A DNA stretch of 64,000 nt from an uncultured Bacteroidales bacterium (GTDB taxonomy: Bacteria; Bacteroidota; Bacteroidia; Bacteroidales; UBA7960), in assembly GCA_964624065.1 (NCBI GenBank), contig CAZUWF010000007.1, positions 14,134-78,133 of the forward strand, written 5' to 3'. The notes below the pieces were generated by a model. It was not told the origin of the DNA. It saw only the letters and a program-made list of their open reading frames with translations, and did not search any database. A program made the translations under genes and the position numbers. Below, one piece after another: positions 9,611 through 48,489 of the stretch. Each line of letters begins with the position of its first letter. Position 1 is the stretch's first letter.

Positions 9611-9643
9611 GATAAAAAATATTTTCCTGATTTTTTCGGACTG

Positions 9644-12107: not shown

Positions 12108-12198
12108 TGCTCTATATTTTTTTAATTTACAGGGTAACCCAAGACCTTAGCCTGCAAGTTACCCTGCCCTGTTATGAGGGAAAAAGTTTATTAAAAAT

Positions 12199-13275: not shown

Positions 13276-13400
13276 TTTATGGTGATTTTTGGGAAACTGA
13301 AATTTGCAACAAAATTCCTAAATATAAACCATATAGCCAAACAAAAGGCAAAATTATTTTGGTTCTAAATAAGGTTTGCAATATGGTACATTATGTCAAA

Positions 13401-22060: not shown

Positions 22061-22843
22061 TCAACACTTCTCCGCTACCACGAGCATTTCAAAGTCCTTG
22101 ATGGTAAGTTTGTCTTGCCTAGAAAAGGCTCCCAACTTGCAGCCAAATATCTCAATCTTACTAAAATCAAGGGTTTTGAGAAGCCAGGTTATTTCGCAAG
22201 GCAGGTAGTACCTTTCGTTGCATTCAAGCTTGTGCTCAACCCCACCATCGTCGGTAAAAGTGGTAAGGTTGTGGTCTCTGAATGTCATAATATCGAAATT
22301 GGTACTTTTGTAGGTGGCGTTGCCTTCGGATGAAGGTCCCTCCTGGTGAAATTGGTCAATTGAATTAAACACCGGAAAAAGCCCGTTGAGGGTTGTAAAG
22401 ATGAACTTGCCATTTGGTTTTAGCGCTCGTGCCACATTTTTCAGGATCTCGAAATTCATCTCGTCGGTTTCCATCAGCGGGAATGCCCCCTCGCAAATCA
22501 TAATTGCTGCGCCAAACTGGTTATCGAAGGGCAAATTTCGAGCATCGTGCATCTCAAAATCAACTTTAACCCCAGTTGCCTTTGCCTTTTCGGCTGCTTT
22601 TAGCAAAAGGTTTTCCGAAAGGTCAATTCCTGTGGTGCGATATCCCCTTTTTGCCAGCTCGATGACGTTTCGGCCGGTTCCGCAACCCACATCCAAAATA
22701 TCAACCGATTTATCATACCCGAGTTCACTTTCGATAAAGTCGCACTCACCAATGGTGCCTTGTGCAAAACATTCGCGATCGTAGCTTTGGGCATAATTTT
22801 CGAAAAGGGTTTGGTACCATTGTTTTGCCTTGGCAGGTTCCAT
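22061..22843 (-). CDS. Class I SAM-dependent methyltransferase, last gene of the xdhCAB operon
   Basis: Has SAM motif I, ILDVGCGTGRNV. It starts 10 nt after the xdhB stop on the same strand. Confidence 0.8.
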   Translation of the reverse strand: MEPAKAKQWYQTLFENYAQSYDRECFAQGTIGECDFIESELGYDKSVDILDVGCGTGRNVIELAKRGYRTTGIDLSENLLLKAAEKAKATGVKVDFEMHDARNLPFDNQFGAAIMICEGAFPLMETDEMNFEILKNVARALKPNGKFIFTTLNGLFPVFNSIDQFHQEGPSSEGNATYKSTNFDIMTFRDHNLTTFTDDGGVEHKLECNERYYLPCEITWLLKTLDFSKIEIFGCKLGAFSRQDKLTIKDFEMLVVAEKC

Positions 22844-22853
22844 TTTTTTCAGG

Positions 22854-25163: not shown

Positions 25164-26620
25164 AGCTGATGGATTTTGGAATTTTGCAACATCTTGGCCA
25201 AAAGATTCTTTGCAACATCCATCCTGAACTCCTTGCCAGCTCGTGCGTCGGTAAGGGGCGAAAAGTCGGTATCTAGAAATTCAATGGCCTCCATAATGAT
25301 AGCATCCGAAATTTCCTTGCCTAATAAGAACTTTTCGGTGTTGAAGGCTCGCCTTGGGGTTGCGGCCATTCCACCATAGGCAATAATAATTCCCTGGATC
25401 AATCCATCCTTGCCCAATTCGAACCGCGTGGCAATACTCAGTGTTGAAATGTCGAGTTCGCGACGGGTAGAGACTTTCTCTGTTTGGACCACCACCCCAT
25501 CAGGTACCAAGGGTATAAGAATCCGAATCAGTATTTCATCGGGATTGAGACAGTTTTGGCGGTAACCGGTTATGAACTCTTCTAAAGGAATTACTTGTTT
25601 TTTGTTAGAATTTCCGATTTCAACCTCTGCATTGTAGGCAAAAAGAATTGGCAGCAAATCGCCTATTGGCGAGGAGGTGGCAAGGTTTCCGCCAATTGTG
25701 GCCACGTTGCGAATTTGTTTGGAAGCGAAAACTTCAATTACCGGACGCATTCCTCGAAAATGGCGCTGTGCAAGTACCTTCACTTGCTCAATGGAGGCTC
25801 CGGCACCTATGGCGGCCTTCTCTCCATCAACAGATATTTCATCAAAACCCTTAACCTGCGAAAGGTCAATGATTTGAGGCGGGTACAGGTGGGTCTTGTT
25901 CTGGTAAATGGCCGTATCGGTTGCACCGTTAACCAACTTCGCATCAGGTTTTTCTTTTTTCCAAACTAATGCTTGGTCAAGGGTGGCAGGTATGAGGTAT
26001 TGCTGCCTTTTGTGCTTGATATCGAGTCCTTTATGACCGCTTTGAATCTCGGAAAGCATTTCGGAAACCATTTGGCTGTGGTGATCGAAGTGGTCGGGTC
26101 GTCTGTTGCTGCAGCAGTCAACTGCAGCATCAATGATCGGCTGGTAACCCGTGCAGCGGCAAAGGTTTCCGGAAAGGGCCTCCACGAGGTTTTGGCGCGT
26201 GGGGGCCATTTGGCTTTTGTAAAAGGCAAATAATGCCATTACGAAGCCGGGTGTGCAGAAGCCACACTGGCTTCCGTGGTGGTTTACGAAAGCCTCCTGC
26301 ACGTGGTGCAATACCAGTTCGGTGTTGTGGCGCCGGGCTAAGTTTTCGACCGAAATAAGCTGCTTTCCGTGCAAGTAAGGCAGGAATAGCAGGCAAGAGT
26401 CAACTGCACGGTATTTGATCTTTCCATCGGGAGCAAGTTCGCCCAAAACTACTGTGCAAGCGCCACAGTCACCCTCGGCACAGCCCTCCTTAGTGCCTCG
26501 ACGGCCCGGTATGGACCTAAGGTAATTCAACACGGTGGTCGAAGGTACGAAAGGCTGCCGCGAAAGGTCAATCTCCACCAATTGGTTGTCCAAGACGAAT
26601 TTTAATGTACTTCCTGTCAT
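25160..26620 (-). CDS. xdhA: Xanthine dehydrogenase small subunit ([2Fe-2S] + FAD-binding)
   Basis: Has the plant-type cluster GCAEGDCGACTV, a second cluster CRCTGYQPI and the FAD-binding region ATIGGNLATSSPIGD. 486 aa, like Rhodobacter-type XdhA. Confidence 0.9.
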   Translation of the reverse strand: MTGSTLKFVLDNQLVEIDLSRQPFVPSTTVLNYLRSIPGRRGTKEGCAEGDCGACTVVLGELAPDGKIKYRAVDSCLLFLPYLHGKQLISVENLARRHNTELVLHHVQEAFVNHHGSQCGFCTPGFVMALFAFYKSQMAPTRQNLVEALSGNLCRCTGYQPIIDAAVDCCSNRRPDHFDHHSQMVSEMLSEIQSGHKGLDIKHKRQQYLIPATLDQALVWKKEKPDAKLVNGATDTAIYQNKTHLYPPQIIDLSQVKGFDEISVDGEKAAIGAGASIEQVKVLAQRHFRGMRPVIEVFASKQIRNVATIGGNLATSSPIGDLLPILFAYNAEVEIGNSNKKQVIPLEEFITGYRQNCLNPDEILIRILIPLVPDGVVVQTEKVSTRRELDISTLSIATRFELGKDGLIQGIIIAYGGMAATPRRAFNTEKFLLGKEISDAIIMEAIEFLDTDFSPLTDARAGKEFRMDVAKNLLAKMLQNSKIHQL

Positions 26621-27384
26621 TTGTTTTTCGAGTTTTTCACGTCAATCAGCCTTGCCACAATGCTAATGGCTATTTCGCGGGGTGTCTCTGCATTGAATGG
26701 TACTCCCATTGGCATTTCCACCCTATCCAATTGCTCTTTGGTAAGCTGGCCCGAATCCAAGTAACGCTGCCTTGCCATAGCCACCTTGCGCTTACTGCCT
26801 ATCATACCGAGGTAGAGTAGGTCTCTGGTGGCCAATATTCCCAACAAATCCTCGTCGAACCCGTGACCTTGGGTAGTAATAATGGCAAGATCTATCGACT
26901 CGAATGGTATGCTCCTTGCCTTTTCGAGGTAATCGCCAACAATACATTCGGCGTGGGTCGCGTCAAACTCCCCGAAAATGTTTTCGCGATTGTCAATGTA
27001 CCTCACCTTAAATCCAAGGCTTTTGGCTAGCACCCCCACCTCGCGGCCAATATGTCCTGCCCCGAAAATGGTAAGGCGAAGTTGGGGGAGGAAGGGTTCG
27101 AAGTAAACGGTAACCTTGCCTCCGCATTGCATTCCCAAGTCGGTTTCGAGGTTGTAGGCAATAAGTTGGGGCTTGCCAGCCTGCAGGCATTTATGTGCAT
27201 CTTCAACGGTACGCATTTCGATCGACCCGCCACCAACGGTTCCAAGGGTTCGGCCATCGGCATAAACAACCATCCTGGCACCCTCCTTGCGAGGCGTGGA
27301 TCCCTGGGCACCTACAACAATGCAAAGCACGAATGACTGGCCTTCGTCTCTTATCTTATTTAATTGAAAAGCTAGGTCTGACAT
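26617..27384 (-). CDS. xdhC: XdhC/CoxI-family Moco insertion/sulfuration accessory protein
   Basis: N-terminal XdhC domain (FVLCIVVGAQGSTPRKEGARMVV) and a Rossmann-like LTIFGAGHIGREV. It overlaps xdhA by 4 nt. Confidence 0.85.
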   Translation of the reverse strand: MSDLAFQLNKIRDEGQSFVLCIVVGAQGSTPRKEGARMVVYADGRTLGTVGGGSIEMRTVEDAHKCLQAGKPQLIAYNLETDLGMQCGGKVTVYFEPFLPQLRLTIFGAGHIGREVGVLAKSLGFKVRYIDNRENIFGEFDATHAECIVGDYLEKARSIPFESIDLAIITTQGHGFDEDLLGILATRDLLYLGMIGSKRKVAMARQRYLDSGQLTKEQLDRVEMPMGVPFNAETPREIAISIVARLIDVKNSKNK

Positions 27385-27822
27385 AATCGTAGATTTTGGC
27401 CGTAAATTTAGTACTTATTCGGTAAATGACAACAAGGTTTATTGGGTTGGGAGGTTAAGTGGTTTAGAATCTGAAAAGTTTTTGGGGTTCAGAATGGCCC
27501 TATGTAAAAAATTAAAATTATAAATAGAATTCATAATGCTGAAAGCGTAAGGCTAAGATTTGCATTCAATGTCGATAAACCTTAGCTCGAAAATTGCCTT
27601 CCAAAAACCTTTTTTCATCGCAGGGGCACTGCTTTTACAAAACTTTTGTATGGCCTGCAAAAACCCCAGAAGGGTCGGGTGGTTCGTAAGCAAGCTTACC
27701 TTTGTTACCTTGGCTGGCGAAAAAAATAGATCTGGAATCCAACACTTCCATTATTTCAAAATCAAAAATCGGCAATCACTCACCTTTTGATAGTCGACCT
27801 AAACCCATACATTTACAAACCC

Positions 27823-28458
27823 CTAAACTTTCCAACCCTTTTCAACATTCTCCAAAAACTCATTGTAATCCCCACCGGTGTTAATATTAAGGTGTATTCC
27901 CGGCCAATCGGTTTCTACCATCAGTCTATTACTGTTTTTCAGGATTTGGGTTAAAGGGTAGTCTGATTCGGGTTGATTCAAGATTTTGGGGATTAAACAC
28001 GGCATTATTAAAACCGGGTGACCGCCCTTTCCCTTGTGAATCGGCACCACGCAATCGTAATCGCCTGCCCTATCTAACATTTCATTCATTAATAACTGGT
28101 TGAAACCCGGATTGTCAACGTTATGCAAAAAAACCGGACAAGAGTCGCCCGCAGCCTCAAAACCGAGCCTTATGGAAAGAAACCTGCCTTTTTTGGGTTC
28201 GGGGTTGTGCACGAATCTGAAATCGTCGAGGGTTAGCACCTCCTGCATATTATAGAATTCATCATGTGTAAAACTCCCCACTACGAAAATTTCCTTTGCC
28301 ATCAAAGATCGGTAACTCCGCACCAAGAACGAAAGGAAATTGTCTTTCTCATCGATAATGAGGCCCGCCTTTGGAAAACCCATTCGGGTGGATAGACCAC
28401 CTGCGAGGATTATTGTAGAAAATTGTGGGCTCATTGCTATCGATTTGACAGAAAACAA
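27823..28458 (-). CDS. MobA/MocA-like molybdenum cofactor nucleotidyl (cytidylyl) transferase
   Basis: Has the NTP-transferase motif IILAGGLSTRMGFPKAGL. It is positionally equivalent to E. coli ygfJ (mocA) next to ygfK. An alternative ATG lies at 28434. Confidence 0.7.
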   Translation of the reverse strand: MFSVKSIAMSPQFSTIILAGGLSTRMGFPKAGLIIDEKDNFLSFLVRSYRSLMAKEIFVVGSFTHDEFYNMQEVLTLDDFRFVHNPEPKKGRFLSIRLGFEAAGDSCPVFLHNVDNPGFNQLLMNEMLDRAGDYDCVVPIHKGKGGHPVLIMPCLIPKILNQPESDYPLTQILKNSNRLMVETDWPGIHLNINTGGDYNEFLENVEKGWKV

Positions 28459-28518
28459 TTATTTACATAACAATGTTCCATGCAAATTACGCAAAAAATC
28501 AAATCAAAGTGGACAAAA

Positions 28519-28538
28519 TTGATTTAATATTGAATCAA
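28519..28538. promoter_or_regulatory. 20-bp near-perfect palindrome in the mocA-like | ygfK divergent intergenic region (candidate operator)
   Basis: In TTGATTTAAT|ATTGAATCAA, 9 of 10 positions are self-complementary. A half-site-like AATTGATTT recurs at 28614-28622. Confidence 0.3.
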
Positions 28539-28798
28539 CAATCGGTTTTTCGCAGGTAGCCTAGTAATTTAATCCCCTGTGATGTATGCGAGGAACAATT
28601 TGATGCAGGAATAAATTGATTTGAATACCCTGGTGAAGATCAGAAATCTGCGCAATTCCTGCCTTTAAAATAAAATGAATCTTAACAGTAAAACTTTAGA
28701 TATTGACCCCATACTTATTGAGGTTTCAAAACCATAGGAAAATTATCTTCTCCAAATTCCCAATTTTTCACTACATTGCGCAAATTTTCTAATTAGTT

Positions 28799-31700
28799 AT
28801 GCATTCAGACAAGTTTTATCCGATTCCGCTTCAAATGCTGCTTAAAACTACCCTTAACCATTTAGGCCAAGGGCACTTTTGGGGCATTCCCTCGGTACTT
28901 TTTCACAAGCCAAAATCAGGTGCCCCCTACTCAACCAGTCGATATGGTAAATTTTTGGAAACCCCAATTGGGGTTGCAGCCGGGCCGCACACGCAACTGA
29001 GCCAAAACATTATTGCAGCGTGGCTAACAGGCTCACGTTTCATTGAGCTTAAAACAGTTCAAACCCTCGATGAGTTGAAAGTGCCAAAACCCTGCATTGA
29101 CATGCAAGATGAGGGCTACAACTGCGAATGGTCGCAAGAGTTGAAAATACATCAGTCATTCGACCAATACCTCGATGCTTGGATTATGCTGCACATTTTG
29201 AGGCACGAGTTGAAAATGGATGCAAGTGCTCAACCGGGGTTTATTTTCAATATGAGCGTGGGTTACAACCTTGAAGGAATAATGGAGCCCAACGTGCAGT
29301 GGTTTTTTGATAGGATGGCAGACTGCAGCCACGAACTTGCTGACAAAATAAGTGAAATCAAATCCATTTATCCAAAGGTAAAGGACATAGAAATTCCGAT
29401 TAGGATTTCTGACAATGTAACCCTTTCAACCATGCACGGCTGCCCGCCTGAAGAGATAGAAAAAATTGCCTCGTACCTTATTTCCCACAGGAAGTTACAC
29501 ACAGCCGTAAAGCTAAACCCAACCCTCCTGGGCAAAGAGAAACTGTATAGAATTATGAACCAATCTGGGTTCGACACTTTAGTGCCAAACCAAGCGTTTG
29601 AACACGACCTGAAATGGGAAGATGCCGTGCCGATGATCAAAAGGCTTGGAAAGTTGGCCGCAAAATACCAAAAACATTTTGGTCTGAAACTCACAAACAC
29701 TCTGGAGAGTGTAAACCACAAGGAAGTTTTTCCGGTAGAGGCAGAAATGATGTACAACAGCGGCAGATCGCTGCATCCCATTTCGGTAAACCTTGCACTG
29801 AAGTTGCAGCAGGAGTTCGATGGCCAGCTTGACATTTCTTTTTCGGGCGGTGCCCACGCTTTCAACATTAGTGACTTGGTCAAGTGTGGGCTTGCGCCGG
29901 TTACGGTTTGCACCGACTTCCTGAAACCAGGGGGGTATGGCCGTGCCAAGCAGTACCTCGATGAACTGGAAATAGCTTTGGACAAAAGCGACGCAAAAGG
30001 ACTTGACCAATTCATTTCTTCTGGTAATATAGGTCTTTCAAAATCGCAACATATAATTGAAAATTTGAAACAATATGCTGCCAAAACCCTTGATAGCTCC
30101 TTTTATAAAAACCAGTCCATCCACGAAACCTCAATAAAGACTACTCGGAAGCTGGACCACCTCGATTGTATTTTTGCCCCTTGCGAGGAGACTTGCCCCA
30201 CCGGTCAGGATATTCCCAATTACAACCACCACGCGGCACACGGCAACTTTGAAGAAGCTGCAAAAATTATCTTGCAAACAAACCCCTTTCCGCGAACAAC
30301 CGGTATGGTCTGCGACCACCTTTGCCAAACCAAGTGCACTCGCATAAACATCGACGAATCGGTAAAAATCAGGGAGATAAAGAGATTTGTGGCCGAAAAT
30401 AGCATTAAGAACAACCGATTTGACCGAATGGTAGAAAACGGCAAGAGGGTGGCAATTATCGGTGCTGGACCTTCGGGTTTGTCGGCAGCAAGGTTCTTGG
30501 CAACAGCAGGATTTTCGGTGGAAGTTTTTGAAGAAAAACCCGATAAGGGCGGTATGGTTAGGAGCGTGATTCCTGCATTCAGACTTACCACCCAAGCCAT
30601 TGAAACCGACATTGCCGAAATTGAAAACCTTGGCGTCAAGGTTTTTTTAAGCAAAACTGTTGACAAGTCTCTTTTGGAAAGGATGAGGCGGGATTTCGAT
30701 TACATATACATTGCAGCCGGGGCTCAAAAAACCAGCAGGCTTAACATACCAGGTATTGAATGTGACGGAGTACTCGACCCCTTGCTCGTGCTTGAAGCCG
30801 CGAAGCTGGGCAAGAGCGTTTCAATTGGGCCAAGGGTTGCAATAATTGGCGGTGGAAACACAGCAATGGACGCAGCCCGCACTGCCTACCGATTGGCAGG
30901 CAAGGAAGGAAAAGTAACCGTGGTTTACCGTCGCACCGTCAGGCAGATGCCCGCAGACCTTGGTGAAATAAAGGCAGTTATGGAGGAGGGTATAGAAATT
31001 TTAGAACTTGTTGCCCCGGTTAGCATAAAAACCAAAAACGGAAAGGTAAGCGCTTTGGTTTGCAATAAGATGGAGCTCGGCCAAAAGGACCACAGCGGCA
31101 GAGGCAAGCCTCAGGTTGTTCCTGACTCTGAGTTTGAAATTGAATTTGATACCATTATACCGGCCGTGGGGCAAGAACTGGCATTCGATTTCGGCAATGG
31201 TGAACTCCTTAAGGCAAAACCCTCAAGTTACGAAACCCAGTTGACCGGGGTTTACATTGGTGGCGACGCCCTGCGGGGTGCCTCAACGGCCATTAACGCC
31301 ATTGGCGATGGTCGCAAGGTTGCCCTAGAAATAATCAATAAGGAGAATATTAGCCTCCAAACCAAGCCTGACAACTTGCGCACTCCTGCCAGCCAAAACT
31401 GGCATCTGGAGCAAAGGGCCACGCGCATTGTAGGCACCCCTGTAAAGGAAGCACCGTTGGATCAAAGGCTTAACTTCGATTTGATTGCCACAACCCTTTC
31501 GGAAAAGGATACAATTCACGAAGCAAAGAGATGCTTGCTCTGCGACGAGTATTGCAGTATTTGCGTTGGGGTATGCCCCAACCTTGCTAACCAAACCTAC
31601 AATATTGCCACTCCGATAAGGTTTGCATTGGAAACCGCAATCCAAAACCACTTGGGCGAGGTATTTATTATAGGGGGCAACCATTTCGAAGTTTCGCAAA

Positions 31701-32095
31701 AATACCAGGTTTACAACATTGCTGATTTCTGCAACGAGTGCGGAAACTGCAACACTTTTTGCCCCTCCGCCGGAGCACCGTACAAAGACAAGCCAAAATT
31801 TCATCTAACCGATGAAAGTTGGAGTAACGCAGAGGAGGGATTCAGAATAACCCTCAATGGAGATGAATCAACAATTGAAAGCAAATCCAATGGTGGTGTT
31901 ACTCGAAAACTTTCCGGCTGCAAACAAGGAAATACCTATACATACGAAACAAATAGTGCCATCGCCACCCTCAATAAGGAGACCCTCAAGATAACCAGCG
32001 TAAACTTTAAGCAAATGGGAGAGCAAGAGGTAAGATTGGAGGATGCGGCGCTAATGCATATTTTGCTATCAAATGTTTACCTTGGGGCTTATTAA
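28799..32095 (+). CDS. ygfK: YgfK-family Fe-S flavoprotein (annotated elsewhere as 'putative selenate reductase subunit YgfK'): DHOD/DPD-like TIM barrel, GltD-like FAD/NAD(P) module and 2x[4Fe-4S] ferredoxin
   Basis: 1098 aa. Blocks shared with E. coli YgfK as I recall it: AAGPHTQLSQNI, WLTGSRFIELKTVQ, KPCIDMQDEGYNCEWSQE, FIFNMSVGYNLEGI, TLSTMHGCPPEEIE, VKLNPTLLG. Also has dinucleotide folds VAIIGAGPSGLSAA and VAIIGGGNTAMDAA and Cys clusters CLLCDEYCSICVGVCPN and FCNECGNCNTFCPS. Confidence 0.9.
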   Translation: MHSDKFYPIPLQMLLKTTLNHLGQGHFWGIPSVLFHKPKSGAPYSTSRYGKFLETPIGVAAGPHTQLSQNIIAAWLTGSRFIELKTVQTLDELKVPKPCIDMQDEGYNCEWSQELKIHQSFDQYLDAWIMLHILRHELKMDASAQPGFIFNMSVGYNLEGIMEPNVQWFFDRMADCSHELADKISEIKSIYPKVKDIEIPIRISDNVTLSTMHGCPPEEIEKIASYLISHRKLHTAVKLNPTLLGKEKLYRIMNQSGFDTLVPNQAFEHDLKWEDAVPMIKRLGKLAAKYQKHFGLKLTNTLESVNHKEVFPVEAEMMYNSGRSLHPISVNLALKLQQEFDGQLDISFSGGAHAFNISDLVKCGLAPVTVCTDFLKPGGYGRAKQYLDELEIALDKSDAKGLDQFISSGNIGLSKSQHIIENLKQYAAKTLDSSFYKNQSIHETSIKTTRKLDHLDCIFAPCEETCPTGQDIPNYNHHAAHGNFEEAAKIILQTNPFPRTTGMVCDHLCQTKCTRINIDESVKIREIKRFVAENSIKNNRFDRMVENGKRVAIIGAGPSGLSAARFLATAGFSVEVFEEKPDKGGMVRSVIPAFRLTTQAIETDIAEIENLGVKVFLSKTVDKSLLERMRRDFDYIYIAAGAQKTSRLNIPGIECDGVLDPLLVLEAAKLGKSVSIGPRVAIIGGGNTAMDAARTAYRLAGKEGKVTVVYRRTVRQMPADLGEIKAVMEEGIEILELVAPVSIKTKNGKVSALVCNKMELGQKDHSGRGKPQVVPDSEFEIEFDTIIPAVGQELAFDFGNGELLKAKPSSYETQLTGVYIGGDALRGASTAINAIGDGRKVALEIINKENISLQTKPDNLRTPASQNWHLEQRATRIVGTPVKEAPLDQRLNFDLIATTLSEKDTIHEAKRCLLCDEYCSICVGVCPNLANQTYNIATPIRFALETAIQNHLGEVFIIGGNHFEVSQKYQVYNIADFCNECGNCNTFCPSAGAPYKDKPKFHLTDESWSNAEEGFRITLNGDESTIESKSNGGVTRKLSGCKQGNTYTYETNSAIATLNKETLKITSVNFKQMGEQEVRLEDAALMHILLSNVYLGAY

Positions 32096-32138
32096 ACTCT
32101 ACAAAGACACACAATTACATAAATAATAATCAAGTTTT

Positions 32139-33617
32139 ATGATTGACCTAATCACAAAAGTACACGACTCTGATGTTCGCTCCAAGGCCATAAAGCGGTT
32201 CCGCGAAAAGGGTATCTTGCTTCCTACTTTTGGTCAGATGCGAAACCCTGACCTTATTCCTGAGGAAATCAAGGACAAACTCAAAGGTGTTGGCCTTTGG
32301 GAATTAAACCCGTTAAACCTGTTCCGCATTACCTGGAAGAACGAGCCTGTGGCAAAGGGGGGTGGTTTCGCAAAGGTGAACCACCTTGAGCTACCTTCGT
32401 CGCTAACCGGTGTAAAGGCCCGCATTGTAGTAATAATTGGCAAGTGGTTTCCAACAGGAGCCCACAAGGTTGGTGCCGCTTACGGTTGTCTGGCCCCCCG
32501 ATTGATATCAGGGCAGTTCGACCCCACAAGGCACAAGGCGGTTTGGCCCTCAACGGGCAATTACTGCCGCGGGGGTGCCTTTGACTCGTACCTGATGGGC
32601 TGCGAATCGGTTGCAATCTTGCCCGAAGAAATGAGCCGCGAGCGTTTCGAATGGCTTCGCGAAATAGGTGCTGAAATTTTTGCCACCCCAGGATGTGAAT
32701 CGAACGTCAAGGAAATATACGACAAGTGCTGGGAGTTGAGGCGCACCCAACCCGACTACGTAATCCTAAACCAATTCGATGAGTTCGGAAATCCTGTCTG
32801 GCATTACAACGTTACGGGTCCGGCCCTCGAAGAAACTTATGGGTATATTAAAAACGGAAAGTCAAACCTTGCTGCCTACGTCTCCAATACCGGCTCGGCT
32901 GGCACTATTGCAGCCGGCGACTATCTTAAAACAAAGTTTCCAAACTTGAAGGTTGTTGCTTCGGAAGCACTTCAATGCCCTACTTTGCTCAACAACGGCT
33001 TTGGCGGGCACAGGATTGAAGGTATTGGCGACAAGCACATTCCTTGGGTTCACAACGTTAGGGAAACTGATTTGGTAACAGCCATCGATGACGAGGATTG
33101 CATTCGAATAATGAGGCTTTTCAACCACCAGCAGGGGAAAGACCTATTGGTTGAAGCGGGCGTGGAACCACAAGTAGTGGATAGCTTGAATTTGCTCGGA
33201 ATTTCTGGCATTGCAAATTTGCTTTCGGCCATTAAAACCGCGAAGTACTTTGAATACACCCAGGATGACGTAATAGTTTCCATTGCAACCGACAGTATGG
33301 AAATGTACGGGTCAAGGATTGAAGAGGAAGACCACGCCAAAGGGGCTTATTCGACAATTCAGGCAGCCCGAGACTTCGATAGGTGCTTGCTTGGCCAGGG
33401 TGCGGAATACCTAAAAGAGTTGACATACCCCGAAAGGAAGGCCATTCACAACCTGAAGTATTTCACCTGGGTTGAACAGCAAGAAAAGGATGTAAAAGAC
33501 CTTAACCGCCTTTGGTACGATCGTGAACTATGGCCTCAACTATTCTCACAAGCCAATGTTTGGGACAAAATGATTGAGGAGTTTAATGGTGAGGTTAGGG
33601 CAGGAAAAAGAGATTGA
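32139..33617 (+). CDS. Fold-type II (TrpB/CysK-like) PLP-dependent enzyme, unassigned subfamily
   Basis: 492 aa. The candidate PLP-lysine motif FPTGAHKVGAAYG compares with TrpB HTGAHKIN. There is a Gly-rich phosphate loop, NTGSAGTIAAG. N-terminal (about 90 aa) and C-terminal (about 130 aa) extensions go beyond a CysK-sized core. Confidence 0.75.
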   Translation: MIDLITKVHDSDVRSKAIKRFREKGILLPTFGQMRNPDLIPEEIKDKLKGVGLWELNPLNLFRITWKNEPVAKGGGFAKVNHLELPSSLTGVKARIVVIIGKWFPTGAHKVGAAYGCLAPRLISGQFDPTRHKAVWPSTGNYCRGGAFDSYLMGCESVAILPEEMSRERFEWLREIGAEIFATPGCESNVKEIYDKCWELRRTQPDYVILNQFDEFGNPVWHYNVTGPALEETYGYIKNGKSNLAAYVSNTGSAGTIAAGDYLKTKFPNLKVVASEALQCPTLLNNGFGGHRIEGIGDKHIPWVHNVRETDLVTAIDDEDCIRIMRLFNHQQGKDLLVEAGVEPQVVDSLNLLGISGIANLLSAIKTAKYFEYTQDDVIVSIATDSMEMYGSRIEEEDHAKGAYSTIQAARDFDRCLLGQGAEYLKELTYPERKAIHNLKYFTWVEQQEKDVKDLNRLWYDRELWPQLFSQANVWDKMIEEFNGEVRAGKRD

Positions 33618-33888
33618 TGGATTAAGGTTGAGGAAATAGAATTTGCCAGTTTGAATTTTTGGAACTCGGATCGGCCGGTAGGCTGACCCTTTGCGCGAAT
33701 TGATAAGATAGCCAAAGATTATTTGGGCAACCTTTAAGCTCGTTAAGGTAAAATAGGTAACCATCAAGCATAGGCAGTTAGTAGGCGGCGGTTAGCGGCA
33801 ACAATAATCTTACTATAGCAAACTTGCAACCTTAATGTTCCGTACCATAACGGTTTTTTGCCTTAGAAATAAACTACAACCTAACAAT

Positions 33889-35133
33889 ATGTCGAAAAAA
33901 TTCATTTTACAATGCGTGAATTGCGGGAACCAATTGCCCGCAGGGGCTTTTGCTTACCTATGTCCTCCTTGCTCCGAAAAGCAAACCTCCCAAATACCAC
34001 CCCTGGGAGTACTCAAAACCCTCTACGATTACGAGGGAATTAAAAAAAAATACTCAACTGTCAACCTGTTCGAGGCATTAAAAGCAAACCATTTCATTGA
34101 CATTTTGCCTATTGAAAACAACGCCAGTCGAGGTACCTTACGTGTGGGTAACACACCTTTGTACGAGTTTGAGCTTGGAAGCAAGGATGGCGGCAAACTT
34201 AAATTCCTTTTGAAAGACGATTCGCAAAACCCCACGTTTTCTCTAAAGGATAGAGCCTCGCAGGTAGTATCGGCATACGCCAGGGAAAACGGATTTGACA
34301 CCATGGTTGCTGCCTCCACGGGAAACGCCGGGTCTTCATTGGCAGGAATTTGTGCTTCGCAGGGTCAAAGGGCAATCATTATGGTTCCTAAAACCGTTCC
34401 GCAGGCAAAACTGACTCAAATAATAATGTATGGCGCAACTCCTGTACTGGTTGATGGCAACTATGATGCCGCTTTCGATCTAAGCGTGGAGGCATCCAAG
34501 CATTTCGGGTGGTTTAATCGTAACACAGGGTTCAACCCACTCACCATTGAAGGCAAAAAGACAGTTTCTCTCGAAATTTACGACCAGTTAAACGGGAAAC
34601 TTCCTTCAGTGATGTTTGTATCGGCTGGTGATGGGGTTATTATCTCCGGGGTTTACAAGGGCTTTGAGGATTTGCTCAAACTCGGAATAATATCAAACAT
34701 ACCAACAATAGTTGCAGTTCAGTCAGAGAGGAGCGACAACCTTGTTAGGAATATGAATACCGAGGATTTTGTGATGACCCCATCAACAACAATGGCTGAT
34801 AGCATTTCGGTTGACTATCCGCGAAATTTTTATATGGCAAAATCATTCTTGAAAAAATACCAAGGGAAATGGTTAACCGTTTCGGATGAGGAGATAATGA
34901 AGGCAGCCTCGAATTTGGCCAAAAATACCGGAATTTTTGCTGAACCTGCCGCAGCAGCAGCAATGGCCGGAATGATCAAGTACAGCAATTACCACAATGA
35001 CCACAGACTCAGCTCAATGCTCGTTCTTTCAACCGGTAGCGGCCTGAAAGATTTGAACGCGTGCCGCGATGCCGTGAAAATCCCAAAACCTATTTCACCA
35101 AAAGTGGAGGAGCTGGAGAAGTTGTTAAGTTGA
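33889..35133 (+). CDS. Threonine synthase-like fold-type II PLP enzyme with an N-terminal CxxC..CxxC zinc ribbon
   Basis: Has the Zn ribbon CVNCGN-x14-CPPCSE, the PLP lysine motif FSLKDRAS and ASTGNAGSSLA. I prefer ATG 33889 over the track start at 33835. Confidence 0.75.
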   Translation: MSKKFILQCVNCGNQLPAGAFAYLCPPCSEKQTSQIPPLGVLKTLYDYEGIKKKYSTVNLFEALKANHFIDILPIENNASRGTLRVGNTPLYEFELGSKDGGKLKFLLKDDSQNPTFSLKDRASQVVSAYARENGFDTMVAASTGNAGSSLAGICASQGQRAIIMVPKTVPQAKLTQIIMYGATPVLVDGNYDAAFDLSVEASKHFGWFNRNTGFNPLTIEGKKTVSLEIYDQLNGKLPSVMFVSAGDGVIISGVYKGFEDLLKLGIISNIPTIVAVQSERSDNLVRNMNTEDFVMTPSTTMADSISVDYPRNFYMAKSFLKKYQGKWLTVSDEEIMKAASNLAKNTGIFAEPAAAAAMAGMIKYSNYHNDHRLSSMLVLSTGSGLKDLNACRDAVKIPKPISPKVEELEKLLS

Positions 35134-35325
35134 TGGGTTAATTTGTCGAGGAGGTGACGGATTAACAATTTTGTGTTTCTCATTTCAAATTCTGCTTTGT
35201 GAACCATAGGGCTCTTTGTAACTTTGTAGTAAATATGTTTTTAATTTGTAACTTGCTTTATTCTATATTTCTTTCTTGCCTTTAGACAAAAAACACCAAC
35301 AGTGCATTTGAATTGCTTTAAAAAA

Positions 35326-37893
35326 ATGATAAAATTAACATTAAACGGTCAGGAAGTAACCTACGAGGGCGATCCCGAAAAAAAGCTTTTGGAGTTTTTG
35401 CGCATTGATAACCACCTGACCTCAGCCAAGGATGGTTGTTCGGGAGAAGGCTTCTGCGGTGCCTGCACGGTTGAAATAAATGGAATGGCCCGCCTTGCAT
35501 GCACCACCACGATGAAAAACCTGCAGGGAGCCACAGTGCTAACTTTGGAAGGTTTCCCGGAAAAGGTAAAAAAGGTTATAGTAAATTCCTTTGTCAACAA
35601 GGGTGCGGTTCAGTGCGGGTATTGCATACCCGGGTTCGTCTCGCGCACCAAGGTGCTGCTCGAGAAAAACCCCAGCCCAACCATCTTGGACATAAGGCAA
35701 GCCATAAAACCACATATTTGTCGCTGCACGGGTTACAAGAAAATAGAGGAAGGGATTGCGGAGGCCGCAAGGGCAATTAACCAAAATATTGAACTTGAGC
35801 TCAACCAAACCTCCGGATGCATAGGCGAATCACAGCCCAAGTACCAGGCTGCCGAAACCGCCTGTGGACAGAGGAAATTTGTCAACGATATGTTTTTCGA
35901 GGGGATGCATTTTGGCGCCCTAAGGTTTAGCGACCATCCAAGGGCATTAGTAAAGAGAATCAATGTTGATGCAGCACAAATGCTTGAAGGAGTGGTTGAG
36001 ATTTTTACGGCTGCCAACATTCCCGGCACACAAAAAGTTGGATTGATCAACAACGATTGGCCGGTAATGATTGCCGAGGGCCAAATTACCAATTTTATTG
36101 GCGATGTATTGGCCGGAGTTGTAGCAACAACCGAAGAGGTTGCGCGTCAAGCGGTTGCCCTAATTAGTGTTGACTATGAAGTTCTCAAGCCCATAACCGA
36201 TCCCTTCGAGGCGGTTCACGGAGAAAGGGTTCACTCGGATCGCCCCAACGTTTACGATACCACACGATTTACCGTAGGCGACATAGAAAGTGCTTTTGCC
36301 CAGGCGAAGTACATAACCAAAGACCGGTTCGAGACCCAAAGGGTAGAACATGCATATCTGGAAACCGAATCGGCCGTGGCCATTCCTGATGATGACGACG
36401 GAATTATTGTTTACACCCAAAGCCAGGGTATATATGTTGACCGCAAGCAACTATCAACCGTTTTGGCCATTCCCGAATGGAAAATCAGGGTGGTGCAAGT
36501 ACCCAACGGCGGTGCCTTTGGTGGTAAGGAGGATTTGAGCGTTCAGGCACATACAGCATTATTTGCGTTCCTGCTAAAAAAGCCGGTTAAAATTACCCTT
36601 TCGCGAAGCGAGTCCATTAGGTTGCACCCCAAGAGGCACCCGGTGTTCATGGATATGGAGCTGGCAGCCGACGAGGATGGCAAGCTAATTGGCCTTAAAC
36701 TTTTTGCAACTGGCGATTCGGGTGCTTATGCCTCTGTGGGCGCAAAAGTGATGGAAAGGGTGGCGGGCCACGCCTCGGCTGGATACTACATTCCAAACGT
36801 ATCCATTGAGTCACGGGCTGTGTACACCAACAACGTACCGTGCGGAGCAATGCGAGGGTTCGGGGCCAACCAGGTTTGCTTTGCAATTGAAGCCAGCATT
36901 GACCATATTTGTTATCAGGCAGGTTTCGATAGGTGGAAAATCAGGTACGATAATGCCCTAGCCGACGGCTTGGCAACCTCAACCGGACACAAAGTTACCG
37001 GAGTTGGAATTAAAGCTTGCCTCGAGGCCATTAAGGATGACTTCTACTCTGCAAAACACGCAGGATTGGCAGTGGCCATCAAGAATTCGGGCGTTGGCAA
37101 TGGTATGGTAGACGAATCAAAGGTAATTATTGAAATATTCGACGGCGGAAGGGTTAAGATAAGCCATGGCTGGACCGAAATGGGTCAGGGAGTTCACAGT
37201 ATGGCCATTCAGACCCTATGCCAAGAAATTGGAATTGACCCCTTCAAAGTTGATGTAGAAACCGATACTAACGCTGACATACCTACAGGTATGACAACCT
37301 CCTCACGCGGAACGGCTTTGTTAGGACTTGCAGTTATAAATGCCTGCCAATCATTAAAGGAAGACTTAAAAACCAGCACCTTGGAACAGCTTGCCGGTAA
37401 GACCTACCGGGGGCAATTCGTGTGCGATTGGACCACCAAGCCTGGCACGCCAGGTGTGGAGCAGGTTACGCACTACTCTTATGGCTACGCAGCACAGGTG
37501 TGCATTTTGGACCACAACGGAAAAATTGACAAGATTGTAGCAGCACACGATGCCGGAAAAATAATGAACCAGATGCTTTTCGAAGGACAGATTGAAGGCG
37601 GCGTGGCTATGGGGGTTGGCTATGCCTTAACTGAAAACCTGCCAATGAAAGATGGATTTTTGGTCAGCGACAAAATGAAAGACCTCGGCCTGTTGCGAGC
37701 CCACCAAACTCCAACCATCGTGGTAAAAGGTGTTGAAGTTAACGACCCAGTAGGACCATACGGAGCCAAGGGAATAGGCGAAATTGGCATGGTACCAACC
37801 GCCGCTGCAATAGCCAACGCCTATTATGCATTTGGGGGTATAAAGCCAACAAAACTTCCTTTGGGCTATAAACTAGAGGCAGCTAAAAATTAA
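35326..37893 (+). CDS. Molybdopterin-dependent hydroxylase with fused N-terminal 2x[2Fe-2S] domains (XdhD / 'selenium-dependent xanthine dehydrogenase'-type architecture)
   Basis: Has CSGEGFCGACTV and CRCTGYKKI clusters, then an a/b-hammerhead and Moco domains with the GGAFGGKED motif. There is no FAD domain. The ATG at 35326 (MIKLTLNGQEV) is preferred over the GTG at 35302. Confidence 0.88.
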   Translation: MIKLTLNGQEVTYEGDPEKKLLEFLRIDNHLTSAKDGCSGEGFCGACTVEINGMARLACTTTMKNLQGATVLTLEGFPEKVKKVIVNSFVNKGAVQCGYCIPGFVSRTKVLLEKNPSPTILDIRQAIKPHICRCTGYKKIEEGIAEAARAINQNIELELNQTSGCIGESQPKYQAAETACGQRKFVNDMFFEGMHFGALRFSDHPRALVKRINVDAAQMLEGVVEIFTAANIPGTQKVGLINNDWPVMIAEGQITNFIGDVLAGVVATTEEVARQAVALISVDYEVLKPITDPFEAVHGERVHSDRPNVYDTTRFTVGDIESAFAQAKYITKDRFETQRVEHAYLETESAVAIPDDDDGIIVYTQSQGIYVDRKQLSTVLAIPEWKIRVVQVPNGGAFGGKEDLSVQAHTALFAFLLKKPVKITLSRSESIRLHPKRHPVFMDMELAADEDGKLIGLKLFATGDSGAYASVGAKVMERVAGHASAGYYIPNVSIESRAVYTNNVPCGAMRGFGANQVCFAIEASIDHICYQAGFDRWKIRYDNALADGLATSTGHKVTGVGIKACLEAIKDDFYSAKHAGLAVAIKNSGVGNGMVDESKVIIEIFDGGRVKISHGWTEMGQGVHSMAIQTLCQEIGIDPFKVDVETDTNADIPTGMTTSSRGTALLGLAVINACQSLKEDLKTSTLEQLAGKTYRGQFVCDWTTKPGTPGVEQVTHYSYGYAAQVCILDHNGKIDKIVAAHDAGKIMNQMLFEGQIEGGVAMGVGYALTENLPMKDGFLVSDKMKDLGLLRAHQTPTIVVKGVEVNDPVGPYGAKGIGEIGMVPTAAAIANAYYAFGGIKPTKLPLGYKLEAAKN

Positions 37894-38065
37894 AAATTAG
37901 GAAATAAGAGAAGAACCTTATGAGTTCTATTGAAATAAATATAAGTTGAAATATTGCCAATTGCATACCTGCCTGCGGCCTTCCACACGCACTTTGCCGC
38001 CAGCATATTTGTATTTTACAAATTTTCTAAACCAATAACCACTTGCAAATTACTAATTACTAAAA

Positions 38066-39340
38066 ATGTCAATAATACTTAAAAACGGAACTTTCATTAA
38101 CTGGGAAACCCTTGAATTTGTAGAGGCACACGTTGTGGCTTCCGAAAATAATCACGAGTCCCTCAAGTTGGTGAAAAAAGGAGAAGAATTGGAGATTGAA
38201 CCCTCCGACAAGGTGATAGATTGCACCGGACAATACATTACCAAGTCTTTTGGAGTAGGTCACCACCACGTTTATTCTGCATTGGCACGAGGAATGCCGG
38301 CACCAGCGGCAACACCCAACAACTTCAGGGAAATACTACAGTACATTTGGTGGAACTTGGACAAGGCTCTCGATGCCGAAACTATAGAAGCCAGTGCCCT
38401 TGCCACTGCCATGGCTTGTGCAAAATCGGGCGCAACATTTGCAATTGACCACCACGCCTCGCCAAACCACATTAAGGGTTCTCTCCAAATTATTGCGAGG
38501 GCATTTGACACCGTGGGCGTTTCGCACCTTCTGTGCTACGAGGTAACAGACCGCGACGGCCACAGGCAAACCCTTGAAGGCCTTGAGGAAAATTACCGAC
38601 ACATCGCCCTAAATCAAGGTTTGGTTGGATTGCACGCTTCATTTACCATTAGCAGCGACACTTTGAAAATGGCGGCAGAATTGATGGAAAAAACAGGGGC
38701 TGGAATACACATGCACCTTGCAGAAGACATTTACGATCAAGAGCAATGCCTAAACAATTACCGTAAAAGGGTGGCATTCAGGCTCAAGGATTATGGTTTC
38801 ATTGACAACCCAAAAAGTATCCTTGTCCACTGCCTCCACCTTGACGATGCCGAACGCGTACTCCTCAGTAACAGCCCGGCTTGGATTGCCCAAAATATGG
38901 AAAGCAACCTCAAGAACAAGGTTGGCCATTTCAATGGCTCGGGGCTTGCCAACAAGAGGATCATACTCGGCACCGATGGTATGCACAGCGATATGCTGCA
39001 AAGTGCAAAGGCTGCATTCTTTGCCGGTCAAAAAACCGATAAAGTAACCCCGGCAATTATCTATGAGCGTTTCAGAAACGTGCACCGCTATCTGGCTGAG
39101 AATAATTTTACTGGAGATGGTGCTAACAACCTGGTGGTACTCGATTACGACACCCCTACCCCGCTCGAACCCCAAAACTTTTTGGGACATTTCATTTTCG
39201 GTATGCGTTCCAACCATATAAGGCACGTTATTTCAAATGGCAAGCTAATAGTTAGGGACTGGGTTTTGAGAACAATAGACGAGGCCAGCACCTTGGAGTT
39301 TACAAAGGCTCAAGCTTTAAGATTGTGGCGAAAACTGTGA
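38066..39340 (+). CDS. ssnA: SsnA-family amidohydrolase (putative aminohydrolase SsnA)
   Basis: GVGHHHVYSALARGM, IWWNLDKALD and AIDHHASPNHIKGSL parallel E. coli SsnA (CSHNHFYSGLSRG, LWWRLDRALD, VIDHHASPAYIGGSL, from memory). Confidence 0.88.
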   Translation: MSIILKNGTFINWETLEFVEAHVVASENNHESLKLVKKGEELEIEPSDKVIDCTGQYITKSFGVGHHHVYSALARGMPAPAATPNNFREILQYIWWNLDKALDAETIEASALATAMACAKSGATFAIDHHASPNHIKGSLQIIARAFDTVGVSHLLCYEVTDRDGHRQTLEGLEENYRHIALNQGLVGLHASFTISSDTLKMAAELMEKTGAGIHMHLAEDIYDQEQCLNNYRKRVAFRLKDYGFIDNPKSILVHCLHLDDAERVLLSNSPAWIAQNMESNLKNKVGHFNGSGLANKRIILGTDGMHSDMLQSAKAAFFAGQKTDKVTPAIIYERFRNVHRYLAENNFTGDGANNLVVLDYDTPTPLEPQNFLGHFIFGMRSNHIRHVISNGKLIVRDWVLRTIDEASTLEFTKAQALRLWRKL

Positions 39341-39588
39341 TGATCTAAAACAATAATTAAATTAAAATTAGAATTGCGATCAATGGTTTTTTACCTCGAA
39401 AAATATGTGCTACTTGAGCCGATCTGATTATTTTCTTTGTTTTAGAATAATGATATAAAAGGTTTGAATATTTGGGGATTAATTGTAAATTATTAATATC
39501 TAAATCAATTCTTTTTGAGCCCTGTGAAAAACTTCTTGTACCTCGTGTTAAACCGTTAGGCCATTGGACCAACAAATACTTTAAACAA

Positions 39589-40959
39589 ATGCAAATCTTG
39601 ATTAAAAACGGCATGATTGTCAGCCATGAGGCTTCAATTAAAGAGGACCTCTTGATTGAGGACGGCAAAATTTTACAACGGGGACTTATTGATCTTAAGC
39701 CAGGGCCCCACCTAACCGAAATTGATGCCAGTGGTATGCTTGTGATTCCGGGAGCATTTGACCCGCACGTGCACATGTACCTGTCAACTGCGGCAGGCTT
39801 TTCGGCCGATGATTTTCAAACTGGAAGCTTGGCAGCCCTGGCCGGGGGAACCACTTTTTTCATTGATTTCGTAATTCCTAAAAAAGGTCAATCATTGCCA
39901 GATGCATTTCGCCAAAGGTTGAAGGAAGCGGAAAACTCGGTGATTGATTTTTCTTTTCACGTAAGCCCCATAACTTGGCACGAGAATTTGGAAAACGAGA
40001 TTAAAGAGTGCCTGGCGATGGGTGCAAAATCTTATAAGGTCTTTACTGCATATCTCGAATCAATTGGCATAGAAGGGGAGGTTTTGCAAAAAGTTGTGAG
40101 GCTCCTGGCCAAAAACGGAGCAATGCTGACGGTGCATGCCGAAACCGGAAGGGAAATTGAAAGGTTGCGAAACGATTACTTTGAGCAAGGGAAAACCTCG
40201 CCAATTTACCACGCTTTGAGCAGGCCAGCCAAAACCGAATCGGAAGCAGTAAAAATGCTTGTGGAACTGACCGCAGGAGAGGGTTGCCCCATGTACGTGG
40301 TCCACGTTTCGGCTGCCGAATCGTTAAAGCACATTAAGGGAGCAAAAAAATCAAACTTGAAGGTTTTCGCCGAAACTTGCCCGCAGTACCTGCTGCTTGA
40401 CCAAGAAAGTTATAACCAACCCTTCGACAAGGCAGCCAAATATGTATTGAGCCCACCATTACGAACAAAAAATGACATTGATTCATTGTGGGAATCATTG
40501 GCAAACAATACTTTAGACACGGTGGGAACGGATCACTGCCCTTTTACCTTGGAGCAAAAAAAGATGGGTTTGAACGATTTCAGAAAAATTCCAAACGGTG
40601 CCGGAGGGGTTGAGCATCGCCCAGCACTTTTGTTTTCAAAGGGCGTGCTCGAAAATCGAATTTCTTTGAACCGTTGGGTGGAACTAATATCAACGAATCC
40701 TGCAAAGATTTTCGGGCTTTATCCTCGCAAGGGAAGCATTGAGGTAGGTGCCGATGCCGACGTGGTGGTTTGGAACCCTAACACTAAAAGAACAATCTCG
40801 GCCACAGACCACCACCAGAACACCGACCTTAACATTTTCGAAGGAATTGAAACCACCGGAACCCCCGAATATGTAATCTTGAGGGGTCAGGTAGTGGTTT
40901 CAAATGGCAGACTTCATGATACCAGCCATTTGAAGGGAAGGTTCCTGCGCCAAGATTAA
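39589..40959 (+). CDS. hyuA: Dihydropyrimidinase / D-hydantoinase (HyuA-like cyclic amidohydrolase)
   Basis: Has the metal motif FDPHVHMY, the carbamylated-Lys context AKSYKVFTAY, and VHAE / VVHVS / TDHCPF blocks. ATG 39589 (MQILIKNGMIV) gives the canonical N-terminus. The track start at 39472 adds 39 non-homologous residues. Confidence 0.88.
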   Translation: MQILIKNGMIVSHEASIKEDLLIEDGKILQRGLIDLKPGPHLTEIDASGMLVIPGAFDPHVHMYLSTAAGFSADDFQTGSLAALAGGTTFFIDFVIPKKGQSLPDAFRQRLKEAENSVIDFSFHVSPITWHENLENEIKECLAMGAKSYKVFTAYLESIGIEGEVLQKVVRLLAKNGAMLTVHAETGREIERLRNDYFEQGKTSPIYHALSRPAKTESEAVKMLVELTAGEGCPMYVVHVSAAESLKHIKGAKKSNLKVFAETCPQYLLLDQESYNQPFDKAAKYVLSPPLRTKNDIDSLWESLANNTLDTVGTDHCPFTLEQKKMGLNDFRKIPNGAGGVEHRPALLFSKGVLENRISLNRWVELISTNPAKIFGLYPRKGSIEVGADADVVVWNPNTKRTISATDHHQNTDLNIFEGIETTGTPEYVILRGQVVVSNGRLHDTSHLKGRFLRQD

Positions 40960-48457: not shown

Positions 48458-48489
48458 CATGAATTTTGCAAAAAAAACTTTCGATAAAA

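Follow-up and report, generated by a model that had tools for sequence, protein, structure and literature searches.

A probable Bacteroidales form of the anaerobic urate degradation cluster with two distinctive pyridoxal phosphate enzymes

A 64,000-nucleotide stretch of DNA from an uncultured Bacteroidales bacterium (GenBank assembly GCA_964624065.1, contig CAZUWF010000007.1, positions 14,134 to 78,133; here called the window) carries a run of genes at 22,061–40,959. With a probability of about 0.7, this is how Bacteroidales encode the anaerobic reductive (2,8-dioxopurine) degradation of purines and urate. In this version a threonine synthase-like pyridoxal phosphate (PLP) enzyme, PLP2, would stand in for the diaminopropionate ammonia-lyase YgeX, and a second PLP enzyme with the fold of cysteine synthase (CysK), PLP1, would be added. 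On this reading, the locus is a true variant of the known pathway, is conserved, and seems not to have been described before.

In that pathway, 2,8-dioxopurine is made from urate by XdhD-YgfM in Escherichia coli (bioRxiv 10.1101/2025.05.19.654654) and by a selenium-dependent fused XdhAC (DOPDH) in Clostridium sporogenes (bioRxiv 10.1101/2025.04.24.650524). According to these two 2025 studies, in which the functions of the homologous enzymes from E. coli and Clostridium were established biochemically, YgfK dearomatises 2,8-dioxopurine, SsnA and HyuA open both rings to give 2,3-diureidopropionate, the ureido groups are removed by YgeW (with YqeA) or UacY, plus YgeY, and YgeX converts 2,3-diaminopropionate to pyruvate and ammonia. 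Both studies deal chiefly with Bacillota and Pseudomonadota, and mention neither Bacteroidota nor cysteine synthase-like or threonine synthase-like enzymes; a survey of SsnA in one of them, built on IPR017700, found six phyla, Bacteroidota not among them. We found no description in the literature of Bacteroidota clusters, of the present arrangement or of the PLP1 and PLP2 enzymes, in keeping with the view taken in an initial annotation of the window that the arrangement was uncharacterised.

Gene families and gene order

The + strand at 28,799–40,959 carries six uninterrupted open reading frames (ORFs) in tandem, encoding in order YgfK, PLP1, PLP2, a molybdenum (Mo) hydroxylase fused to a [2Fe-2S] domain, an SsnA-like amidohydrolase and a HyuA-type cyclic amidohydrolase (Table 1). 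The initial annotation had picked out these six co-directional genes. This observation was confirmed, and a divergent mocA-xdhC-xdhA-xdhB operon that it had overlooked was found directly upstream. With this operon counted in, the functional unit therefore extends over approximately 22,061–40,959.

YgfK scored above the TIGR03315 cutoff and shared 37% identity with its E. coli namesake over the full length (1077 amino acids). HyuA (38% identity to E. coli HyuA; 464 amino acids in a relative) was likewise above its cutoff, and comparison with the E. coli enzyme showed that the metal ligands and the position of the carboxylated lysine are conserved. The best characterised relative of the SsnA homologue was E. 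coli SsnA, with 32% identity, and the two share the HxH, IDHHASP, HxHxAE and GTDG motifs. The Mo hydroxylase, with the domain order Fer2, Fer2_2, Ald_Xan_dh_C, MoCoBD_1 and MoCoBD_2, is of the TIGR03311 type and not of the XdhD (TIGR03313) type (855 versus 191 bits). Its annotated product has 855 amino acids, and the Mo domain of DOPDH, residues 307–839, is of similar size. These family matches support the earlier assignment of the locus as a version of the reductive urate cluster. The model searches suggested with that assignment placed YgfK, the TIGR03311-type hydroxylase and HyuA above their cutoffs, left SsnA below, and did not identify the hydroxylase as XdhD.

Like the E. coli ygeW-xdhD cluster, the window has YgfK, an SsnA-like amidohydrolase, HyuA, MocA, a xanthine dehydrogenase close by and a Mo hydroxylase fused to a [2Fe-2S] domain, but it is without the E. 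coli YgeX, YqeA, YqeB, YqeC, YgfM, sigma-54 regulator and purine transporters; the two PLP enzymes and the TIGR03311-type hydroxylase are features of the window. Shared with C. sporogenes and C. difficile are the pathway logic and a single-polypeptide FeS and Mo hydroxylase of about 850 amino acids with no FAD subunit, and YgfK is shared with C. sporogenes. The clostridial clusters have YgeX together with either UacY or YgeW plus YqeA, and depend on SelD and YqeB/YqeC, whereas in the window YgeX is probably replaced by PLP2, PLP1 is added, and no YgeW, YqeA or UacY is linked.

The 80 best PLP1 loci, one per species (numbered L001 onwards), were annotated by comparison with a set of reference proteins taken from the window, from E. 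coli and from Pyrinomonadaceae. Many of the contigs are short, and the gene counts given here are minimum counts. The order YgfK-PLP1-PLP2-Mo hydroxylase-SsnA-HyuA was the rule in Bacteroidota. PLP2 was present in 57 loci, the Mo hydroxylase in 48, YgfK in 47, SsnA in 35 and HyuA in 26. Where there was enough sequence, YgfK lay directly upstream of PLP1 in 35 of 56 loci, and PLP2 directly downstream in 50 of 64. The closest relative had the same layout as the window and the same mreBCD/purH flank, and a Tenuifilaceae genome encoded XdhA, XdhB, MocA, YgfK, an AsnC-type regulator, PLP1, PLP2, the Mo hydroxylase, SsnA, HyuA, YgeW, YgeY and XdhC in one place. The same gene order is found in most of the 80 species-representative genomes, an arrangement well beyond chance.

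Public annotation names members of the PLP1 and PLP2 families 'cysteine synthase' and 'threonine synthase', as would be expected if they were housekeeping cysK and thrC genes lying in the cluster by chance. The recurrence of the gene order in dozens of species-level genomes indicates that they are not, and upholds the initial annotation in treating them as part of the cluster with ygfK and ssnA. Their linkage to ygfK and the Mo hydroxylase is kept across phyla, both proteins score below the curated cutoffs, and PLP1 has conserved terminal extensions. A housekeeping identity is hardly credible, and was rejected on the basis of the curated cutoffs and the conserved synteny. Given the sub-cutoff scores and the catabolic context, the two database labels are probably wrong.

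Properties and contexts of PLP1 and PLP2

PLP1 scored far below every family cutoff and was 21–29% identical to CysK-fold proteins. It has conserved extensions of about 85 amino acids at the N terminus and 95 at the C terminus which are not found in CysK. We aligned 14 members of the family, including one annotated sequence from Pyrinomonadaceae (Acidobacteriota); the identity of the 13 homologues to the window protein was 68–89% along the whole length, counting the extensions. Invariant positions were K110 (the Schiff-base lysine), the S138-T-G-N141 loop, Q212, the T251–T256 loop and S356, and all CysK-type elements that bind PLP and the amino-acid carboxylate are retained. At two places where the residues of CysK are small or hydrophobic, PLP1 has an invariant R144 (in the Asn loop) and the triad D298-K299-H300 (following the GIG motif). 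Five cysteines (C117, C143, C197, C280 and C321) are invariant too. A predicted structure of moderate quality (pLDDT 71.6, pTM 0.79) was compared with known structures using Foldseek. It matched O-acetylserine sulfhydrylases, beta-cyanoalanine synthase, cystathionine beta-synthase (CBS) and the H2S-producing homologue Fn1055 with probability 1.0 and TM-scores to the target of 0.7–0.79; only such generic CysK/CBS/beta-cyanoalanine synthase matches were returned by this search, and none explained the extensions. PLP1 thus has in common with these enzymes the core fold, Schiff-base lysine, Asn loop, phosphate loop and N1 serine. An aminoacrylate intermediate would be expected in both, but the context of PLP1 is purine catabolism and not sulfur assimilation.

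Thousands of database proteins matched the PLP1 family, and when a single genome was scanned for each species, at least 571 of these genomes encoded a member. The carriers were mostly uncultured Bacteroidales, together with Aminicenantes/Acidobacteriota, Spirochaetota, Calditrichia, SAR324 and Clostridia, and between phyla the protein keeps an identity of about 70%. No PLP1 homologue occurs in the urate cluster region of E. coli. One apparent PLP1 fusion protein (P0250) was discarded, as it appears to be a frame-shifted, low-complexity translation.

PLP2 has an N-terminal CxxC...CxxC zinc ribbon and the Schiff-base motif SLKDR. It resembles ThrC but fell below all of the ThrC cutoffs, and so is not assigned as a threonine synthase. 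Its similarity to YgeX was limited to approximately 26% identity over 167 amino acids, with an NF006058 score of 64 bits against a cutoff of 276. No YgeX orthologue was found by tblastn in the window, nor in any Bacteroidota locus among the 80 annotated. In Pyrinomonadaceae and SAR324 loci (L002 and L052) there is no PLP2, and the gene beside PLP1 encodes a YgeX orthologue (39% identity, full-length). PLP1 is thus partnered by either PLP2 or YgeX, but not by the two together. Both are fold-type II PLP enzymes encoded beside PLP1, PLP2 being the ThrC-like one with a zinc ribbon. This exclusivity makes PLP2 a probable non-orthologous functional replacement of YgeX. PLP1 itself was ruled out as the replacement, since a true YgeX orthologue adjoins it in both L002 and L052. 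As it is present both with PLP2 and with YgeX, PLP1 is an additional component, an extra enzyme with no counterpart in the characterised pathway.

Outside the conserved block, PLP1 and a HyuA-like dihydropyrimidinase form a two-gene pair in metagenome-assembled genomes of Aminicenantes, Spirochaetota and Clostridia (L038, L072 and L081, at approximately 10000–14000 in each). The pairs stand apart from genes for Mo hydroxylases, YgfK and SsnA. Next after the pair of L081 come genes for a phosphopentomutase-like metalloenzyme and a PNP_UDP_1 nucleoside phosphorylase. These pairs suggest that PLP1 also has a function connected with the hydrolysis of cyclic amides in the breakdown of nucleosides, beyond that of urate. 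Among more divergent homologues (34–47% identity), one adjoins a Mo hydroxylase and a UacX-like reductase (L093), another adjoins F420 biosynthesis and luciferase-type genes, recalling the Chloroflexota variant of the pathway (L091), and a third, 44% identical, adjoins moaA (L089). The neighbours of solitary PLP1 genes (L046 and L079) were uninformative.

The proximity to moaA is one of several observations that would fit a role of PLP1 in maturation of the Mo hydroxylase. PLP1 would then be a cysteine or selenocysteine beta-lyase providing the sulfide or selenide from which the terminal Mo=S/Se ligand is made, either analogous to the NifS-like domain of molybdenum cofactor sulfurases or replacing SelD, YqeB and YqeC. 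Consistent with this, PLP1 co-occurs with TIGR03311-type hydroxylases across phyla, its model resembles H2S-producing CysK-like enzymes such as Fn1055, several of its cysteines are invariant, and no yqeB, yqeC or selD turned up in the annotated loci (selD was not searched for in the window). However, the fixed neighbour of PLP1 is PLP2 or YgeX and not the hydroxylase. PLP1 follows a yqeA-ygeW-ygeY-ygeX run in SAR324 with no Mo hydroxylase within 10 kb downstream, and around the PLP1-HyuA pairs no Mo enzyme is encoded for 10 kb in either direction. We therefore give a maturation role little credence.

The proposed pathway and competing explanations

The following scheme is suggested by homology to the characterised enzymes. 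XdhAB would oxidise hypoxanthine and xanthine to urate, from which the fused FeS-Mo hydroxylase would strip the C6 oxygen to give 2,8-dioxopurine. This would be reduced (dearomatised) by YgfK, after which SsnA would open the first ring and HyuA the second, yielding 2,3-diureidopropionate. The two ureido groups would be taken off, most likely by YgeW and YgeY encoded outside the window. The two PLP enzymes would then turn the resulting beta-N-substituted alanines, albizziin and 2,3-diaminopropionate, into pyruvate and ammonia, with PLP2 acting in the place of YgeX and PLP1 carrying out an additional C-beta-N cleavage or exchange via an aminoacrylate intermediate.

CysK-fold enzymes make and break C-beta-N bonds. 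Two late intermediates of the pathway, albizziin (beta-ureidoalanine) and diaminopropionate (beta-aminoalanine), are beta-substituted alanines, the type of substrate used by this fold. On these grounds we tentatively predict that PLP1 is a C-beta-N lyase or exchange enzyme, at best guess catalysing a beta-elimination, acting on albizziin or diaminopropionate. The gene neighbourhoods of PLP1 are in keeping with this: PLP2 or YgeX adjoins it, a HyuA-like hydrolase is its partner in some phyla, and its more divergent homologues have the neighbours given above. It is conceivable, at a similarly low level of confidence, that this is a new PLP activity (an albizziin or diaminopropionate C-beta-N lyase or transferase) providing a branch or shortcut absent from E. 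coli and Clostridium, and that PLP1 and PLP2 together carry a different lower pathway in lineages without linked ygeW and ygeY.

Several points weigh against the assignment of the locus to urate degradation by this scheme. The SsnA homologue fell below both NCBIfam cutoffs (NF005540, 364 versus 444; TIGR03314, 328 versus 455.5). The Mo hydroxylase was only 24–26% identical to E. coli XdhD and XdhA (24% to XdhD), and its putative likeness to DOPDH is judged from the TIGR03311 score and the architecture. The 64-kb window has no yqeC and no full-length yqeB, only a 255-amino-acid XdhC; selD was not searched for. Neither tblastn searches with E. coli proteins nor NCBIfam scans of the other ORFs turned up ygeW, ygeX, ygeY, yqeA, yqeC, another carbamoylase or a purine transporter in the window, so that the absence of ygeW, ygeY, yqeA and ygeX reported initially was borne out. 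In the closest relative, too, there was no ygeW, ygeY, yqeA or carbamoylase within 10 kb of the cluster. With no carbamoylase the alpha-amino group would stay carbamoylated, and no PLP enzyme could act. Finally, YgeW, YgeY and a YgeX-type enzyme suffice to complete the pathway as known, which leaves no evident need for PLP1.

The distance of the Mo hydroxylase from XdhD and the low SsnA score would also be expected if the cluster broke down some other N-heterocycle, such as another oxopurine, a pyrimidine derivative or a hydantoin, with the PLP enzymes handling an amino acid specific to that substrate. The nucleoside phosphorylase and phosphopentomutase-like genes beside the PLP1-HyuA pair of L081 are compatible with this, as is the lack of a counterpart of PLP1 and PLP2 in the characterised pathway. 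On the other hand, YgfK is above its equivalog cutoff, and the sole known substrate of YgfK is 2,8-dioxopurine. A canonical xanthine dehydrogenase adjoins divergently, guanine deaminase-like genes recur nearby, and the YgeW and YgeY proteins encoded beside the block in relatives are highly identical to the E. coli urate-pathway enzymes. Degradation of a different heterocycle is thus highly improbable.

Those flanking genes also bear on how the ureido groups are removed. In 15 loci (L007, L008, L015, L033, L036, L053, L056, L059, L064, L068, L074, L075, L077, L083 and L094) ygeW lies directly beside the YgfK-PLP1-PLP2-Mo hydroxylase-SsnA-HyuA block, joined in 14 of them by ygeY. The YgeW proteins were 64–71% identical to E. 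coli YgeW, and the YgeY proteins approximately 50% to E. coli YgeY. PLP1 ends a yqeA-ygeW-ygeY-ygeX run in the SAR324 locus L052. The simplest reading is that ygeW and ygeY are located elsewhere in the source genome. Across the Bacteroidota loci only ygeX is consistently replaced. The initial annotation had held that the lower half of the pathway must use different chemistry. This is only partly supported. YgeX is probably replaced and PLP1 is added, but the claim is weakened for ureido removal, as ygeW and ygeY flank the same block in relatives.

A more radical form of that idea would have the entire lower pathway, with YgeW, YgeY, YqeA and YgeX, replaced by the PLP pair; HyuA might, for example, release albizziin, from which PLP1 would eliminate urea to give pyruvate and ammonia. 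Such a route would account for the lack of ygeW, ygeY and yqeA from the window and from within 10 kb in the closest relative, and about half of the long related loci also have none of the three nearby (for example L011, L012, L018, L019, L063 and L066). The solitary PLP1-HyuA pairs hint that the product of a cyclic-amide hydrolase feeds PLP1 directly, and the C-beta-N chemistry general to the CysK fold would be suitable. Against this, the PLP1-PLP2 block coexists with the adjoining ygeW and ygeY genes described above, and PLP1 stands alongside ygeW, ygeY, ygeX and yqeA in SAR324. PLP1 therefore does not make YgeW and YgeY redundant. The alpha-ureido group, moreover, needs a remover, and the cluster encodes none. 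Replacement of the whole lower pathway appears unlikely, and we prefer the reading in which YgeW and YgeY act from elsewhere in the genome and PLP2 replaces YgeX.

Flanking genes and significance

The features of the functional unit are listed in Table 1. True start codons are likely to be at 33889 for PLP2, 35326 for the Mo hydroxylase and 39589 for HyuA.

Table 1. Genes of the divergent xdh operon and of the ygfK-hyuA block (window coordinates; scores in bits)
Feature	Position	Strand	Evidence
SAM-dependent methyltransferase (DVU_1556-like)	22061..22843	-	Methyltransf_25/11; NF045667 61, under cutoff; last gene of divergent xdh operon
XdhB, molybdopterin-binding subunit, canonical xanthine dehydrogenase	22854..25163	-	TIGR02965 991.7 vs cutoff 849.5; Ald_Xan_dh_C, MoCoBD_1, MoCoBD_2
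XdhA, [2Fe-2S] and FAD subunit of xanthine dehydrogenase	25160..26620	-	TIGR02963 498.9 vs cutoff 467; Fer2_2, FAD_binding_5, CO_deh_flav_C
XdhC-family molybdenum cofactor insertion/maturation chaperone	26617..27384	-	XdhC_CoxI and XdhC_C; TIGR02964 143.8 vs cutoff 161.6
MocA-like molybdenum cofactor cytidylyltransferase	27823..28458	-	NTP_transf_3; TIGR03310 75.7, under cutoff; divergent from ygfK
YgfK, Fe-S flavoprotein, predicted 2,8-dioxopurine reductase (dearomatising)	28799..32095	+	TIGR03315 908 vs cutoff 835
PLP1, CysK-fold PLP enzyme, 492 aa	32139..33617	+	Best model cysK TIGR01139 113.8 vs cutoff 350.95
PLP2, ThrC-like PLP enzyme	33889..35133 (ORF opens 33835)	+	NF006050 205 vs cutoff 303; TIGR00260 152.1 vs cutoff 167.1
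[2Fe-2S]-fused Mo hydroxylase, predicted urate to 2,8-dioxopurine reductase	35326..37893 (ORF opens 35302)	+	TIGR03311 'Se_dep_XDH' 854.8 vs cutoff 830.45
SsnA-like amidohydrolase, predicted first-ring cleavage	38066..39340	+	NF005540 364 vs cutoff 444
HyuA-type D-hydantoinase/dihydropyrimidinase, predicted second-ring cleavage	39589..40959 (ORF opens 39472)	+	TIGR02033 504 vs cutoff 393

XdhA and XdhB both exceeded their equivalog cutoffs and are adjoined by XdhC, as in canonical Rhodobacter/Pseudomonas-type XdhAB. An FAD-containing xanthine dehydrogenase is therefore encoded next door to the block, and would, as judged from its sequence, be able to make urate from other purines. XdhC was 32% identical to part of E. 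coli YqeB. The MocA-like gene occupies the same divergent position in 18 related loci, and the methyltransferase gene adjoining xdhB is found also in the closest relative (L005). Two genes for SAM-dependent methyltransferases lie downstream of xdhB on the - strand (20558–21331 and 22061–22843). The best matches of these methyltransferases, the MocA-like protein and XdhC were to a set of models (DVU_1551, DVU_1556 and 'XdhC_rel_AOR') which NCBIfam ties to aldehyde oxidoreductase maturation, every score being below cutoff.

The spacer of 169 bp between PLP2 and the Mo hydroxylase gene in the window holds a hairpin with a 12-bp stem (35137–35166). In the closest relative a PDDEXK_3 gene separates these two genes (L086, 9558–9935), and in L001 an IS110 transposase gene separates ygfK from PLP1 (8829–9833). 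An Rfam scan detected no riboswitch or other RNA in the 20–42 kb region, and a scan for sigma-70 promoters and terminators gave the same counts as in shuffled sequences and was uninformative. Downstream (3′) of HyuA are housekeeping genes: an lpxH-like gene, mreD, mreC, mreB and purH. Further along, at 48466–50496 on the + strand, is a urocanate hydratase homologue (TIGR01228, 407 bits versus a cutoff of 375; 676 amino acids). As listed, its ORF has about 100 extra N-terminal residues, and a later start codon may be used.

Related loci carry further genes of which the window has none. An Lrp/AsnC-type regulator gene lies immediately upstream of PLP1, and divergent from it, in at least 10 related species (L053, L054, L058, L094 and others), amino-acid permease genes lie near the cluster in six loci, and genes of the cytidine/guanine deaminase fold in four. 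In Pyrinomonadaceae (L002/L003, 14245–16191) a YgfK-like protein of 648 amino acids corresponds to the N-terminal 470 or so and the C-terminal 120 or so amino acids of YgfK, and is without the central GltD-like FAD/NAD(P)H domain. The same cluster includes genes for a CN-hydrolase and for an M20 peptidase that is not related to YgeY, and HyuA is missing from the surrounding 10 kb. This cluster is apparently a further variant of the pathway, in which the electron donor and the carbamoylases would differ.

The 2,8-dioxopurine pathway was elucidated only in 2025, and the present results point to a distinct and strongly conserved version that is widespread in Bacteroidales and other anaerobic phyla, in sediments, digesters and guts. 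Surveys that rely on the SsnA family model, or that take YgeX to be 'any PF00291', may overlook or misread the Bacteroidales version, the PLP genes of which are labelled cysteine synthase and threonine synthase in databases. The sub-cutoff scores of the window SsnA may explain the Bacteroidota gap in the IPR017700-based survey, and if SsnA relatives in other Bacteroidota also score below cutoff, surveys of the urate pathway by family model would miss the phylum. The reaction of PLP1, once identified, would complete or revise the lower pathway, and would sharpen the prediction of which environmental and gut bacteria consume urate.

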